From assembly GCA_963666835.2 (NCBI GenBank), contig CAXXGO010000006.1, positions 160,001 through 224,000 on the forward strand: a stretch of 64,000 bases of DNA, read 5' to 3'. The first letter of the stretch is position 1; the number at the start of each line of letters is the position of its first letter. Position numbers: made by a program. This document shows positions 36,001-48,000 of this stretch, one piece after another. This DNA is from Phycisphaerae bacterium (GTDB lineage Bacteria; Planctomycetota; Phycisphaerae; UBA1845).

Positions 36001-39000
36001 AAGCGGAACCCGTGGGTGAGATTCGCCCCCACATGCTCCCGTCCCGAAGGGCCGGCGGACGTTTACCGGGATCGCGCGAAGACCCCGTAGGGCATGGTCG
36101 AGGAACGAGACCTGCCATCAAAGCCGCAATGGGCCGAATCGCACGAGAACGTGCCACGTGCGTGGCTTGAGGAACCAGCCCGCCAGATCTGCCTGGCCCG
36201 CGGCGCGAGTCGCGGGCTCAAGTCGCACGTCGACCCCAGCCCCGCCAGGCACTTCGATACTCGAACAGGTCCCCGCGGTCGCCAACGTGTTCCCGTATGA
36301 TGCTGCATCACCGGCGTTCGATCGAAACCTCGATGTCCTCTACCGCCCACAAAGGGCTTGGCGCGAAGCGGCCGCACGGTTTCCCCAGGCTTACGCCGTG
36401 GGCCCACAGAATCTGTCGCCCCACGGGGCTGCCCGCTGGCGGCGTATGATGGGAAGGTGCGCGCTACGCGAAAGCAACGGCAGGTCTCGTGCCTCGACCG
36501 TGCCCTACCCCTGGCACCGCTGCTCCACGTACACCGAAGGCCTTACGTCTAACCCGCGGCTACATGCCCACAGTCCCTTCGGGACGGATTACCGCACGAC
36601 CACCTACCGAGGTTAGTACCATTGGGCTGAGCCCGACCTACTCAGAATGGCCCCGGAACAGCAGGCTCTCTACGACCTGCTCCATTGGCCGGGGGTCCCG
36701 GTGTTCAAGTCAGGTCCCGCCCACGTGGCGCCGCGCCGGGGGCGTGTCGTGATGATGCCCGCCAACGGCTACATGTTGCGTAGAGTCAACACGCCTGCAG
36801 ATTCGGCCCGTATCGAGGCTCGCCCGTTCTGGGACGCAACTGCGTAACCTCCGTCCAATGCGAATGTTACGCAGGTTGCCGCCGGTTCTGTTCCCCGCCG
36901 CAGCTTTGGCATACCCGGTGTACCCCTTCCCCTGTGCAACCGTGGAGTGGCGGATTCGTGGCGCAAGCTCGCGGTCCGATCACGGTGGCCTTGGGGATTG
37001 AGACACTTGCTGGCTACGGAGGGGGAGAGGCCGTATGAATGAAGAGACTTTCCAGCGGAAACTCGCTGAACTCATTGCTGAAATCGGGAGCTTGCCGGCT
37101 AATGAACGCGACAAGCTCGAACTACTCGCCGCCCAAACGCGCGAGCGGCATAAGCAGCTCAAGGAGACCGTAAGCAGTCTTCAGGAGAGCATCGACTTCG
37201 TCCGCCTGGCCATCAAGTATCTGCTGTTCGATCTGGAGGCGACGCGCCGAGAGAACACTCAGCTTCGCAAACTGCTCGACGACGGCGCCCAGTAATAGCC
37301 GTTAACGATTCTGAATACGCCCCCTTGAAGCCCGCGGACGACCATGTTCGCGGGCTTGGCATATATTGGGGCGTCCATCTCTCCTTAAAATGACTTGTCT
37401 GTGTCACTGCCCCAGCGAAACGTGCCCTTCGCCGGCCGGGGGGGCCGCGTCCGCCGGCTGCTTTGTCTCCCGCAACTCGTCCCATGCGGATTTCAGCGCC
37501 GTCGATAAGTCCGCGGCGACCTGCGCCCCACGTAACTCCTCGCTCAACCGCTCTACCTCGTCCGCCAGCTCGTCCCGCTGCCGCTCCAACTCGGCCCGCT
37601 CGAGCACCACGGCCACGATTTTGTCCGCCATCACCTCCGCCCGGTTCTCCAAGCGCCGTACGGATTCGCGTTCGTGAGCCAGAGAGTCCTGCAAAACACC
37701 CGTTTCACCGTCATGCCGGGCCTGCAACGCGGCCAACTGCCGATCGTACTCGGCCTGAACCGCCTCCAACTGCCGGTGATAACGCTGCTCGACGACCGCC
37801 AATTCGGCTTGGGCCTTCTCCTCATGATCCCCGCCGCCGCGCATAGCCGCCCGCGCGATTCCCCAGGCAGTCTTCAACGACTCGGTAATCCGGGCGGCGT
37901 GCGTTGTTCGGCGCAGTTTGGCCGCGAGACTCTCGACTTCCGCGGACAGGTAGTCGCGCTCGGCCATCACCCCGGCCATTGCCACCGAACGCTCGGATAG
38001 CTCCCGAGCCAGGTCCATCTCCCGCTGCTCCTGCTCGCTCAGCCGCTCTCGCTCGTGCTCCAACACCCCCTGCAGAGCCGCCGACTCGCCATCGAATCGC
38101 GATTTGACCGAGTTCATCTCCCCGATGTGGCGGACCTCGGCGCTGAGCAAGGCTGCTTCCACCTCCGTCTTCTCTTTAGTCATCTTGCGGGCAGCCTCCG
38201 CCTTCGTCGTGTGATGAAGGCATACCCCGGCGCCGCCCGCGATAATGAGCATGAACGCGACCGCCCAACCGGCGCGCGCCGAGCGTCGAGCTTGGGCCGC
38301 GTCATCTTCCAAACAGATGCGGGCAGCGGACAGGGCTGACACGGTGTCCGAGAACGTCGTTTGAATGGCTGCCAGGGTGTCCGTGTCGTGTTTCTTCTGA
38401 ATGGCTGCGGCCGCACCCACCTCGGCCAGATGTCGGCCAACCTGGGTCACCGTAGCCACAGCCTTGTCCGTGTCCACATCGACGAGGATATTGCGTCCGT
38501 CTCGCCGCGTTCGGAGCAGACCACCCCGTATTCTGCGGCGAATGGTGCGTATTGAACAACCGAGCGCGGCCGCGGCTTCCGTCTGAGTCATCCATGACAT
38601 GGGCAGATCCTCCTGGCGTCCGCAGGTCAACAGCGGACACAACGCCGGAGCCGACCGCAGGCGGACACCGGCCAACTTGTCGGCCAAACCCGTGCCGACA
38701 CGTCCGATATCCTAACCGGACACCCGCCGGTTGCCAACATGTTTCTGCGCCGTTCGAAGACTGGCCACGTGCGGCGACGCCACTGCTCAAAACGCCCGGG
38801 TACACCGAGCGCGAACAGCTAGGGTCCGCTCCGCGGACCACATTCTTGGAGACACGGGCGAACGCGAGGTCCGCCCGTTTGATACGGCCCGGCCTGCGGG
38901 ACGGGTGCGGCAGTCAAACGTGTATGATCCGCGTAGCGCAATAGGGCCAACCTTGCCCGGCGGTCATGCGGTGAACCGTTCCGACGTGGGCATGTAGCCA

Positions 39001-45000: not shown

Positions 45001-48000
45001 GGTCGACTCATCGATGAACTCGCAAAGAAACTCCTGCCGAAAGAGGGTCTCGTCGCCCATAGCCCGCCGCATCTGCTCCACGTCCACATCTAACCCATAG
45101 GCCACCGCGTCCGGCAGCGTCAACAAGCTGGTGGTGAACCGCGGATTGTCACGCACCTGGCAGAACATGTTGCCGCAGCCCTTGGGCGTGGACGCCACGT
45201 CCAGCTCGCCGTCACCGCGAAGAAGCGTCGGGAACATCGCCGCCCAGATCTCGCGATCGAAGTCGTGCATCGCGAATTCGTCGAGCAGAACATCACCGGT
45301 GAAACCCCGTGCCGTCTGCGGGTTGGCCGGGAGCCCGATGACCCGGACCCCGCCCGGCAGGACGATCTCGAGCTGCTTGACGCTGAGCCCTTTGAAAAAG
45401 CGATCGTCGTAATAGTCCGTCGCAATCTGCAGAGCCCGGCAATGCTGGCGAGCCTTGGCCATCAGCTCCCGACTCTGCCGCTCACCGGCCGAGAGGAACA
45501 CCTGCGTTCGCCGCCGAGATAGTCCGCGGAGGATCCGGCGTAGTGATTTGGTGAAGCTCTTACCCGTCTGCCGCGCCCAGCAGTTCCAACGAAACCGGGC
45601 GTCACTTTCCACGTCTTCACGCTGGTACGGCAGCAGTGGGACAATCGCCCGGGTTTGCGCCGGTTGCCGAACCCGCGCGTTTCCGAGATGACGTTGCGCT
45701 GATAGTAACGTGCCCATGCGAGTGCATTACCGGTGTCGGACATTGCAGCCGGCCCTCGCGTCGGCATTCTCTCTGCCCGCATAGAACATGCCCCAACAAC
45801 GCATCACCTGAACGCCGGATTAACCTCGCCCCACCGATCGCCCGGGTGCCCCATCCGTCGCCCCAGGCGAAGGGTGGGGGATGGACCCGCAGCTTGATGT
45901 CTCACGTGACTGCCAAGCAAACTCCGTCAGGCAGGGTGGCCCATGTTCTTTTGAATCTAGCGCGGGTGCCCCGTCCTTCGTCTCCGGCGAAGGGTGGGGG
46001 ACGGACCCGCAGCTCGATGTCTCGAACGACGGTCAAGCAAGCCTCCCACCACCGGATGTCCCGCAATAGTTGAAAGCAAGGTGCGACACGTTGTATAATG
46101 TCCGCATCAAACAGGTCATTGCAGTGGGTCAGAATGGAAAGGAGTATAGGTCAATGAGTGATTCTCTTCCCCCTATGAGCGCCCCGTCAATACCGCAGCC
46201 CCCTCAGCCAACCCAACCCGATGGTAAAGCCGTCGCGGCTCTCGTGCTCGGCTTGTGCAGTATGTTCCTGTGGCTGTGTCCTTTGATTGGGGTGATCGTA
46301 GCAATCAACGGTTTCGTTCTTGGTATCATTTCCCGCGAACGCCAGCGCAGCAAGATGGCCATGGCCGGGATCATCCTCAGCCTGATTGGCGGCATAGCAA
46401 GCGTACTCAATATGATCATAGGCGCGTATCTCGGCGCTACGGGTCAGCATCCTGTGATAAACGCGATGCAGCAGGGGTAGCGCGGGTGCCCCATCCGTCG
46501 CCCCAGGCGAAGGGTGGGGGACGGACCCGCAGCTTGATGTCTCACGTGACTGCCAAGCAAGCCCCGTCAGGCAGGGTGACCCATGTTCTTTTGAATCTAG
46601 CGAATGCCTAGTCCGTGGCACACGCGGGCGATGTGAGGTTGTTTGAACATGGGGTAGCCGATGATAATACCCGTTCGTAGTTGATGGCGAGTTGCAGCGC
46701 GGGTGCCTTATCCGTCGCCCCAGGCGATGAGTCTCGCTGCTCTACACATCATCCACCGCATTCACTGATTGCAGCCGTTCGGTCTTCGATCTCGATTCTC
46801 CAGCCCGAAGGGCTTGGATGAAGTAGACGGGGGCAAGTCCGCCATCGGCGGACGCCGCCCCCGGACCCGCTCCCCCCCCGTACCTGACCCCGCAGGGGGT
46901 CAAACAGCGCGGTGAATGTGCTTCGCCATTGACTTTTGACGCATTGTCAAAGAGCTCGGGCAGCCGAAACGAACTCGCGGTTCATCGACGCCGTTTCTTT
47001 CACCCTGTCAGGGTGATTGGGGTCCTTGTGACTCCACCGAGGGCGGCGGCCGCTACGCGGCCTTGCCCCCGTCTACTATCTTGTAGGCTTTCAGCCTGAA
47101 AAAGGGGCTAGCTTGCAGCTTGTCAGGCTGGGGAATGCGTCACCGCGGAGTTAGACGGATACGCTCCGCTCCCCCGGCAAAGATGTGTAGAACAACGAGG
47201 GCGAAGGGGCGCGGGTGCCCCGTCCTTCGCCCCAGGCGAAGGGTGGCGGACGGACCCGCAGCTCGATGTCTCGAACAACTGCCAAGCAAGCCCCGTCAGG
47301 CAGGGTGACCCATGTTCTTCTGAATCTAGCGAATGCCTAGTCCGTGGCACACGCGTGCGATGTCATGTAAACGGATACGTGGTGGACCCGACGAACGCGG
47401 CCGCAGTGATGGAGAAGGTGACGGGTAACTCGGCCGTCGGCGTAGTCCTTGGCGGAACCGGCCCATAGGGTGACTCATCGAGGCACAAGATCTTCCCAAA
47501 CAGGTGGCATCGTTAGCGTCAATTGCCACGGCGAGGAACCCGGTCAAACCCAGTGATTCCGTGTCCGCCCAGCCGTTTTTGCTGGTTTCCCTGTCTCGGT
47601 TGCGTTACAATGGGGGACATCGCATGTGGGAGGTTGGGACTGCGCGCCCCGGCGGGTCCGACGGCAGAATCGCCCGTAAGCACCATCGGTCTCGGGACAG
47701 CCGAAGAGTCGGTTTCTTGGGTGACGCGTCGCGAATCGACTGCAGGAGGGTATGGATGATGAGCAAAGCGACGAGGTTCGCCGCGATCGCGGCCGCGGCG
47801 TTGGTATGCGTTTCGGCATCTCAGGCGGTGGAGATTCAGACGGTAAGCGTCAGCAACCCCGGGAATCCGGCCGACCCGAGGTACCCGGACCCGCCGGTGG
47901 CCAGTTTCGGCGGGGTGGACAATGTCTACAACATCGGCACGTTCGAGGTGACCGCCGGGCAGTACCGGGATTTCCTGAATGCGGTCGACCCCGCGGGCTC

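Follow-up and report, generated by a model that had tools for sequence, protein, structure and literature searches.

What does a bacterial lineage do with phage head genes that it keeps in its chromosome? The question is raised by a block of Mu-type head and DNA-packaging genes in the window (the whole 64,000-nucleotide stretch analysed here, from a Phycisphaerae bacterium of the order UBA1845). Known gene transfer agents (GTAs) are confined to a handful of lineages and few domestications, and an order-wide system of separate Mu-type origin, present in hundreds of species, lets the reasons why hosts retain phage heads be tested independently. That this uncultured order kept the capsid and packaging genes of an ancient virus intact while shedding the tail stepwise points, as far as gene content can tell, to the capsids themselves being of use to the hosts, most likely for packaging and moving their own DNA. 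The best reading, to which we give about even confidence, is an independently domesticated, GTA-like capsid that packages host DNA.

The head and packaging block

The genome-wide survey's note had described a block made up of head and packaging genes at 37404..45717. Five intact, co-oriented genes on the minus strand (39865-45717), all with family matches to head or packaging proteins, bear out this description (Table 1), and no tail, lysis, integrase or transposase family was matched by the 26 ORFs scanned between 29.7 and 54 kb. The extent is shorter than proposed: the ORFs taken for Gp36 and a small terminase are not members. Genes were called with a simple caller of our own, which shortened some starts and missed small genes. 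The Walker A/B and nuclease acids of the window terminase are intact by residue check, and its protease keeps the His and Ser. The protein that had been called scaffold-like proved to be a cement/decoration protein by its PHROG 1731 (E 3e-21) and weak Phage_cement matches. It consists of a phage domain of ~130 aa and a C-terminal extension of ~115 aa, which is typical of resident (non-prophage) copies, those of prophages having a median length of 141 aa; no match to the extension was found. The capsid protein matches gpT-domain capsids in the PDB (E 4e-33) and is at most 37% identical to those of named phages among the 12 matches listed, with Mushuvirus at 34%. GC content is 0.634 in the block and 0.626 in the window.

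Table 1. Features of the block and its surroundings (window coordinates)
Feature	Position	Strand	Evidence or remark
terL, large terminase (DNA-packaging ATPase/nuclease), 451 aa	44362-45717	-	Pfam Terminase_6N/6C; PHROG 5909/2
Portal, Mu gp29 type, 436 aa	42696-44006	-	Portal_Mu E 1.1e-87; PHROG 113
Mu gpI-type head maturation protease, 318 aa, with scaffold region at the C-terminus	41692-42648	-	Mu-like_Pro E 2e-52; PHROG 328
Cement/decoration protein, 254 aa	40893-41657	-	PHROG 1731 E 3.2e-21; weak Phage_cement E 0.006
Mu gpT-type major capsid protein, 307 aa; final block gene in this genome	39865-40788	-	Mu-like_gpT E 1.5e-57; PHROG 371
Candidate promoter/operator site, putative function	45792-45813	-	Highest-scoring window site for a non-coding motif that precedes resident terminase genes
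Short genome-wide repeat (REP-like) between terL and portal; not phage-derived	44152-44331		Up to 59 genome matches
Short genome-wide repeat where relatives have gp36 and tail genes; outside the module	38936-39199		Up to 194 genome matches
HTH protein, 398 aa; neighbour, not a module member	37404-38600	-	Weak PHROG 57 match; absent from relative loci
Host anchor genes (mobA-like, 566-aa protein of unknown function, parB)	50369-54038		Same neighbours in 5-6 related genera

Beyond the capsid gene, the small ORF at 38914-39213 is a shadow ORF on the second repeat. The window has no Gp36; the only one in the genome (C5:292217) lies inside a full Mu-like prophage, and a search of the window between positions 33 and 56 kb at E 0.01 detected no traces of gp36, terminator, tube or tip genes. 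The 398-aa protein had been read as having a small-terminase-like HTH, but its PHROG 57 match covers the HTH alone and equals its matches to MerR and excisionase families. Behind the HTH come a hydrophobic stretch and then a long helical region rich in acidic and basic residues; the protein recurs in 0/100 relative loci, and weak homologs in 3 of 30 relatives are located behind pilin-like genes. Contigs of two studies run across the capsid-to-HTH junction, which rules out misassembly as the cause of the truncation. In the 5-6 genera that share the mobA-parB anchor, the module lies in the opposite orientation and ends in neck/tail genes. The motif upstream of the terminase genes, obtained by EM from 50 upstream regions, reached a log-likelihood of 166, compared with 72-79 in three shuffles. 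The first upstream motif found was coding sequence, and one upstream of the protease was portal coding sequence; both were discarded.

Inheritance with the host and selection

A gpT match was found in 244 of 279 genomes of the order (149/159 among those of high quality; 230/279 after 14 genomes with a best E weaker than 1e-20 were dropped by eye) and in 4 of 104 genomes of the class outside it, so the order-wide prevalence first reported holds. The accompanying claim of one copy per genome is false for this genome, which has three gpT copies, although its resident copy is single. Resident loci were present in 90 of 94 sampled genomes. Among 100 relative loci, chosen from the best ~150 of 802 matches with long contigs favoured, five are Mu-like prophages. 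Identities between genes of related Mu-like prophages and those of the window are 38-55%. Six 'odd' loci of the order carry capsid, tape-measure-like and sometimes transposase genes. A word-based search, which detects close relatives only, found no relative of the window capsid among viral contigs.

In trees of RpoB and of the module (55 genomes), families f1, f6, f8, f10 and f11 each group in both, and this genome (G000) is sister to G154 in both. The two sets of distances are rank-correlated (0.64, or 0.78 without f6; permutation p <=0.002), and 15 of the 24 well-supported RpoB splits are recovered in the module tree, while 6 conflict with supported module splits. The differing flanks had raised the worry that the module still moves; within a host lineage, however, they are constant, and the differences are between lineages. 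Capsid identity to the nearest other species is 74%, and near-identical copies across species were not seen. A quick capsid-only tree left 42 of 100 inner branches open, with long branches meeting, and its grouping of f6 with a second class of prophages is doubtful, as the portal, protease and cement proteins of f6 score best against other residents.

Median dN/dS between same-genus pairs is 0.116 for capsid, 0.121 for portal, 0.121 for terminase, 0.164 for cement, 0.198 for adaptor and 0.209 for protease, compared with 0.148 for flanking host genes, whose dS is similar (pairs with dS >=2 or <0.02 were left out; pairs share genomes and are hence not independent). The four nuclease Asp are kept in 46/46 resident terminases, and among 86 resident proteases the His is kept in 83 and the Ser in 84. 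Compared with a strain from another study, the five window genes show 15 synonymous and 4 replacement differences (among 40 of 115 differences listed), and terL shows 10 synonymous codons to 1 replacement codon among the differences listed. The window terminase has more changes than that of its sister with three of five outgroups (p <0.05), an excess not shown by RpoB, which hints at relaxed selection. Purifying selection is evidence of use and is silent on which use. Taken with co-phylogeny, lineage-fixed flanks and the split loci described below, it supports the survey's reading of a domesticated, vertically inherited phage head; that the module was domesticated and inherited with its host is well supported by these comparisons.

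Loss of the neck and tail

The label 'tail-less' fits the window and a few genomes, but not most relatives. Of the resident loci, 83 had the length needed for a call; the Gp36 adaptor is present in 82 of them, and genes for a terminator, a tube or the tail tip in 59. In type A loci the terminator is fused directly to the distal-tail (Dit) ring and accompanied by tip proteins, and the downstream genes are homologous to those for the tail tip in this genome's true prophage. Type B loci have a terminator and a tube protein; a tape measure was not seen. The fusion and the tube were identified by fold comparison. Profile searches of the terminator and hub alignments against PDB sequences gave nothing significant, and profile-profile comparison linked neither terminator nor tube to the fusion protein, nor the small beta-rich domains among themselves. 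No lysis gene, DNA-ejection protein or tape measure was recognised in either type, and in the resident loci read there are no genes for mobility or replication, nor for gpF, gpG, a small terminase or a tape measure. A search for dispersed parts in five genomes each, run without a positive control, detected no tape measure, tube-position gene, type-B tube or Mu gp27; the hub profile matched in 1 of 5. Head-only or adaptor-only copies are those of the window, G115, G108, G095 and G085. By its gene content, the window is the head-only extreme of repeated tail loss.

The module can also be divided. In f10, terL lies away from the capsid locus in 11/11 genomes, as does the portal gene (11/11). In f6, a loss of the terminase had seemed indicated (0/20 true matches to the window protein, 5/20 to Terminase_6C); this was rejected, since the five represent one conserved orphan terminase of another family, unlinked in 70/72 genomes and adjoining the portal in one. 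Loci are split in G182 and G132 as well. The terminase is kept in every family tested, including those without neck and tail (the draft genomes G085 and G271 gave no terminase match), and the relocated terminase and portal genes are intact, single-copy and under selection. Capsid, cement and protease genes always stay together. A natural deletion series results, in which selection would need capsid, portal, protease and motor, and not tube, tape measure or even adaptor; because it separates needed from dispensable parts, the question of transfer or another use becomes directly testable. The terminator-Dit fusion provides a natural design for a zero-length tail.

Comparison with known systems

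Six features characterize GTAs in the accessible text of PMC9662315: caudoviricete-derived particles, packaging of mostly random host DNA, full endogenization, often at several loci, own genes that are not fully packageable, vertical inheritance and delivery to cells. By similarity, the UBA1845 module, known here from its genes, encodes caudoviricete-derived virion proteins, and it sits between host flanks, in split loci in some lineages, with families congruent with those of the host. An intact terminase with no small terminase alongside is consistent with random packaging of host DNA. The G182 loci, at 0.42 and 2.44 Mb, would by their layout not be packaged as a whole module; the 5.9-kb block of the window could fit a head. 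RcGTA, BaGTA and BhGTA, as described in that text, likewise have chromosomal, split, host-co-diversified head and packaging genes without replication or mobility genes. Unlike them, the UBA1845 module has a Mu-type gpT/gpI/gp29 ancestor, belongs to another phylum, shows no recognised tape measure, small terminase or lysis gene, has lost its tail or cut it down to a terminator-Dit stub, and uses in f6 a terminase of another family.

By its description in the accessible part of the report (10.1101/2024.11.15.623857), a Faecalibacterium GTA-like element is similar in being a near-ubiquitous head operon of one lineage with a second locus elsewhere, in having capsids without a clear tail and in its unproven delivery; it differs in its observed particles with packaged host DNA, its small terminase candidate and its phylum. 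A Mu-like siphophage prophage of the same host (G000 C5:283-308 kb) shares the order of its head genes with the resident loci and has homologs of their adaptor, Dit, hub and tip genes. It also has transposase, gpF, gpG, gp27-position, tape-measure-like and tube-position genes, none of which were found in resident loci by BLAST with the prophage genes; the DDE transposase, regulators, gpF and full contiguous tail of a transposable Mu-like prophage are likewise present in this control and lacking in residents. No published description of this system was found in the openly accessible literature. Neither 'Planctomycet' nor 'Mu-like' occurs in the accessible text of PMC9662315, and in the accessible parts of 10.1101/2022.02.18.481119 and PMC13055281, both of which mention Planctomycetota, GTAs are assigned to Alphaproteobacteria.

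Possible uses of the capsid

Under the GTA-like reading, a Mu-like phage head operon would have entered the order in a single capture close to its root and been inherited with the host since. It would probably be switched on in a few cells, by the host reading a site upstream. The head would be built from protease/scaffold, portal, capsid and cement proteins, and the large terminase, which has no neighbouring small subunit to recognise sequence, would cut the host chromosome and pump in pieces of it. In most relatives the adaptor would close the head, which would bear a stub of type A or type B; neck and tail would be dispensable, head and motor being all that remains here and in at least one more genome. 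The likely pay-off is exchange of DNA or repair templates among kin, as for GTAs. Against this reading, no lysis gene, tape measure or DNA-ejection protein that would account for release and delivery was recognised in types A and B. Head-only and adaptor-only copies have no tail through which to inject DNA, the head-only ones lack any known delivery part, and a filled head lacking the adaptor may leak.

A more tentative version, which we consider rather doubtful, is that the DNA-filled head alone is the working unit of a gene-transfer particle and that this particle passes DNA to recipients without having its own tail. The tail would then have been dismantled stepwise, through a tip stub with terminator-Dit fusion and no tube, a tube without tape measure, neck only and adaptor only to head only, with head and motor remaining under selection, and entry would occur by uptake of whole capsids or with necks or tails borrowed from co-resident Mu-like phages. 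If true, Planctomycetota would gain their first GTA-like system, built on a Mu-type head and with a terminase swap in one family.

Similarly doubtful is domestication for defence or programmed death, in the manner of host-DNA-filled, non-transducing particles: the terminase could cut the chromosome or incoming phage DNA, capsid parts could poison the assembly of related Mu-like phages, or particles could serve as decoys or export DNA. Retention of head and terminase through repeated loss of neck and tail would suit such a role, related Mu-like prophages still infect these hosts, and PBSX is given, in the accessible part of 10.1101/2024.11.15.623857, as a case of DNA packaging without injection. 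However, defence would need no portal, protease, cement or (in 28 loci) conserved tip proteins, all of which are under purifying selection, and a divergence of 50% probably makes cross-assembly doubtful.

It is less likely that, across the order, the system works as a stub-tailed, GTA-like particle and the window holds a recently crippled copy of it, not yet decayed, from which an inversion beside mobA-parB removed adaptor, terminator and tube. The ~26 closest relatives with enough flank all carry gp36 and downstream genes, of which none are left in this genome outside the prophage, the window terminase evolves faster, and repeats flank and interrupt the block; against this stand five open frames, the synonymous excess relative to the other strain and G115, which became head-only independently.

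Encapsulin nanocompartments are HK97 shells without portal or terminase and with a cargo gene. A DNA-free protein compartment of this kind would fit the inseparable capsid, cement and protease, the relocatable terminase and portal and an acetyltransferase gene inside the f6 operon, but it is very improbable, as the order keeps portal and terminase, the latter two intact, single-copy and under selection even where relocated, and a conserved cargo gene is absent.

Least probable of all is a defective prophage or capsid-forming satellite still spread by a helper, the alternative that the survey itself had raised. Tails could be lent by the Mu-like prophage of this genome, the 'odd' loci could be read in this way, and cf-PICIs encode heads only and release tail-less capsids that can borrow tails, according to the accessible part of 10.1101/2025.02.11.637232. 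As described there, cf-PICIs are able to replicate and excise, fill capsids with their own DNA and pass between species, and the UBA1845 module shows the opposite pattern: window ORFs match no integrase or replication family, the 90 resident loci hold no such conserved cluster and no small terminase, nearest-species capsids are only 74% identical with host-like dS, and no close viral relative was found. This alternative is largely refuted by the missing mobility genes, the host-like tree, the flanks constant within each lineage and the split loci, since no self-mobile element could survive with its terminase, or terminase and portal, at a separate locus, as in two families.

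Distribution and inheritance of the module

The Mu gpT family is present in 244 of 279 genomes of the order, and in 149 of the 159 high-quality ones. When the window capsid was used as query, 13 of 16 other order genomes gave a match, against 4 of 104 class genomes outside the order, and the close capsid matches among genome contigs (n = 33) all bear titles of Phycisphaerae, Planctomycetota or uncultured bacterium; the order name follows the genome-wide survey's note. The 100 loci analyzed (94 genomes), chosen from the ~150 best-scoring of 802 matches with long contigs favoured, comprise 90 resident (chromosomal, non-prophage) modules, five prophages and five odd elements. 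A related head and tip-gene block occurs in three of four genomes (loci L263, L264, L265) of f20, a family of the class outside the order, with capsids 50-52% identical.

The module has almost certainly been domesticated by its host: it is inherited, it is under selection, its enzymes are intact and it has lost mobility. Domestication and vertical inheritance, proposed in the genome-wide survey's note, are supported by fixed flanks, agreement of RpoB and module trees, purifying dN/dS and split loci. Within a host lineage the flanks stay constant: mobA/parB in 5-6 f1 genera (f1 being the family of the window's genome), a pterin synthase in six genera of f11 and AMMECR1 in nine f6 genera. One 768-aa gene is common to f1, f8 and f6 loci. 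In trees of 55 genomes, five families are each grouped by RpoB and by the module, G154 is sister to the window's genome in both, and the type B loci described below correspond to a host clade, G143 excepted. RpoB and module distances correlate at 0.64 (0.78 without f6), and of the 24 RpoB splits with strong support the module tree recovers 15 and conflicts with six. Over 30 same-genus pairs, module genes (tip genes among them) have median dN/dS of 0.12-0.22, versus 0.15 for flanking host genes, with dS alike; catalytic residues of the module enzymes are conserved. In f10, 11/11 genomes encode terminase and portal outside the capsid locus, both intact and single-copy, and the two parts of the module are 2 Mb apart in G182. 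A terminase of a different family (PHROG 38) is found in 70 of 72 f6 genomes, unlinked at the 12 loci read and immediately before the portal in G057. A candidate non-coding motif precedes type A and B terminases (log-likelihood 166 vs 72-79 in shuffles), and a weaker candidate near-palindrome precedes those of f6 (86 vs 59-60).

Gene content of the window block

Five head and packaging genes of the seven-gene block first described stand; the Gp36 gene and the small-terminase-like HTH protein do not. The sole Gp36 of this genome is encoded on contig C5, in a true Mu-like prophage. Downstream of the window capsid, a small ORF overlaps a repeat that has up to 194 matches in the genome. The 398-aa HTH protein is present at 0/100 relative loci, and three of 30 relatives have weak homologs of it, each downstream of pilin-like genes; contigs of two studies span the capsid-to-HTH junction. 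Nor does one copy per genome, as had been stated, hold for this genome, which has three gpT genes: in the block, the C5 prophage and an odd locus on contig C6 (1.57 Mb). Head genes of prophage and window are 38-55% identical, and the GC of the block is host-like.

Nothing of the module lies downstream of the window capsid, and this copy is inverted relative to mobA-parB, compared with its kin; palindromic repeats may have driven inversion and deletion here. The C-terminal extension of the cement protein, for which searches returned no match, could be a head spike. The gene run at ~18.6-27.1 kb looks, by its layout, like an integrated mobile element.

Features of the window and of related loci in the same genome
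Feature	Position	Strand	Basis or remarks
Large terminase, portal, protease/scaffold, cement protein, Mu gpT-type capsid (in this order)	39865-45717	minus	family/profile matches
Cement protein	40893-41657		~115 aa C-terminal extension, absent from most prophage copies
HTH + hydrophobic + helical protein	37404-38600		three homologs (L238-L240) behind pairs of pilin-like genes
Short palindromic repeats, dense and genome-wide	35904-36712, 38936-39199, 44152-44331, 45840-47274		up to 519 matches; around and within block
Run of small co-oriented genes	~18.6-27.1 kb		last is a 625-aa gene; GC dips at 16-18 kb
Full Mu-like transposable prophage (L037, L038)	C5:283-308 kb		kin of resident module; control; transposase (interrupted by contig end), gpF, gpG, Gp36, tape-measure-like and tip genes
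Odd locus	C6:1569-1575 kb (L039:8982-14995)		

Graded tail loss across the order

Resident loci have a core order of terminase, portal, protease, cement, capsid and Gp36 adaptor, and 83 of them, with at least 3 kb downstream, were classed by what follows. In type A (28 loci, eight families) the adaptor is followed by genes for a fusion protein (277 aa) and a 708-aa protein and by tip genes, and in 14 other loci by the fusion alone; type B (17 loci, a host subclade of f1) has a terminator and mostly a tube, and type C (20 loci, f6) small membrane or lipoprotein-like genes. Three loci end at the adaptor and one at the capsid. The description of the block as tail-less holds for the window and a few other genomes, among them G115 (99% complete), a second head-only genome, but not for the 59 of 83 loci (types A and B and fusion-only) that carry fusion, terminator, tube or tip genes.

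The predicted fold of the fusion (pLDDT 88) is a Mu-type terminator plus a distal-tail (Dit)/tube-initiator domain, matching Mu terminator 9khy (E 6e-6) and SPP1 Dit 2x8k; the type B genes are, by fold, one terminator and one tail tube. The fusion was absent genome-wide from G108, G095 and G085. Because type A genes are homologous to those downstream of the tape measure in the C5 prophage, type A looks like a phage of that kind from which tube and tape measure were excised and the ends joined. BLAST of the prophage gpF, gp27-position gene, tube-position gene, tape measure and transposase against the loci gave matches only in the prophage and odd loci. In most f6 loci (L081-L100) a GNAT acetyltransferase gene lies between portal and protease, fused to the portal in G057; the small two-helix and lipoprotein-like genes after the adaptor, without family match, may be lysis genes.

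No description of such a module was found in the literature searched. New here are the order-wide graded tail loss, the terminator-Dit fusion, the kinship of the module with a prophage family that is still living, the presence of two families of terminase and a corrected gene list for the window block.

Possible function and alternatives

The module is real, domesticated and probably particle-forming. By the roles of these families in phages, the portal would be the base on which a head is assembled; the protease would then mature the head, the cement protein stabilize it and the terminase fill it. Since a small terminase is missing next to it and there is no element that replicates and could be packaged, host DNA is the expected substrate, and filling of heads with it is considered likely. 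Delivery to kin is less certain than any other step: it agrees with stubs that bear tip proteins but not with head-only copies, and neither lysis nor ejection genes were recognised in types A and B. Three of the six features that define gene transfer agents (GTAs) in PMC9662315 are found in the module; on genomic evidence it works like a GTA, yet it is not classed as one. Taken whole, this GTA-like reading stands at about even odds.

Use of the module in defence or death functions is possible but doubtful. Local crippling of the window copy is rather improbable: its adaptor is missing, and its terminase has evolved faster than its sister's with three of five outgroups while RpoB has not, but it has five open frames with every catalytic residue, and the listed differences from a strain of another study comprise 15 synonymous versus 4 replacement codons. 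A role as a compartment is very improbable. A mobile satellite is hardly credible, as a module split over two loci cannot move as a unit; the module falls outside both Mu-like prophages and capsid-forming PICIs. The odd loci (the C6 locus, L041, L054, L064, L065 and L072) share protease, capsid, a tape-measure-like gene and a 150-aa gene, the order of which is scrambled, and two of them have a Mu-type transposase homolog; these are possibly a capsid-forming satellite of the Mu-like phage.
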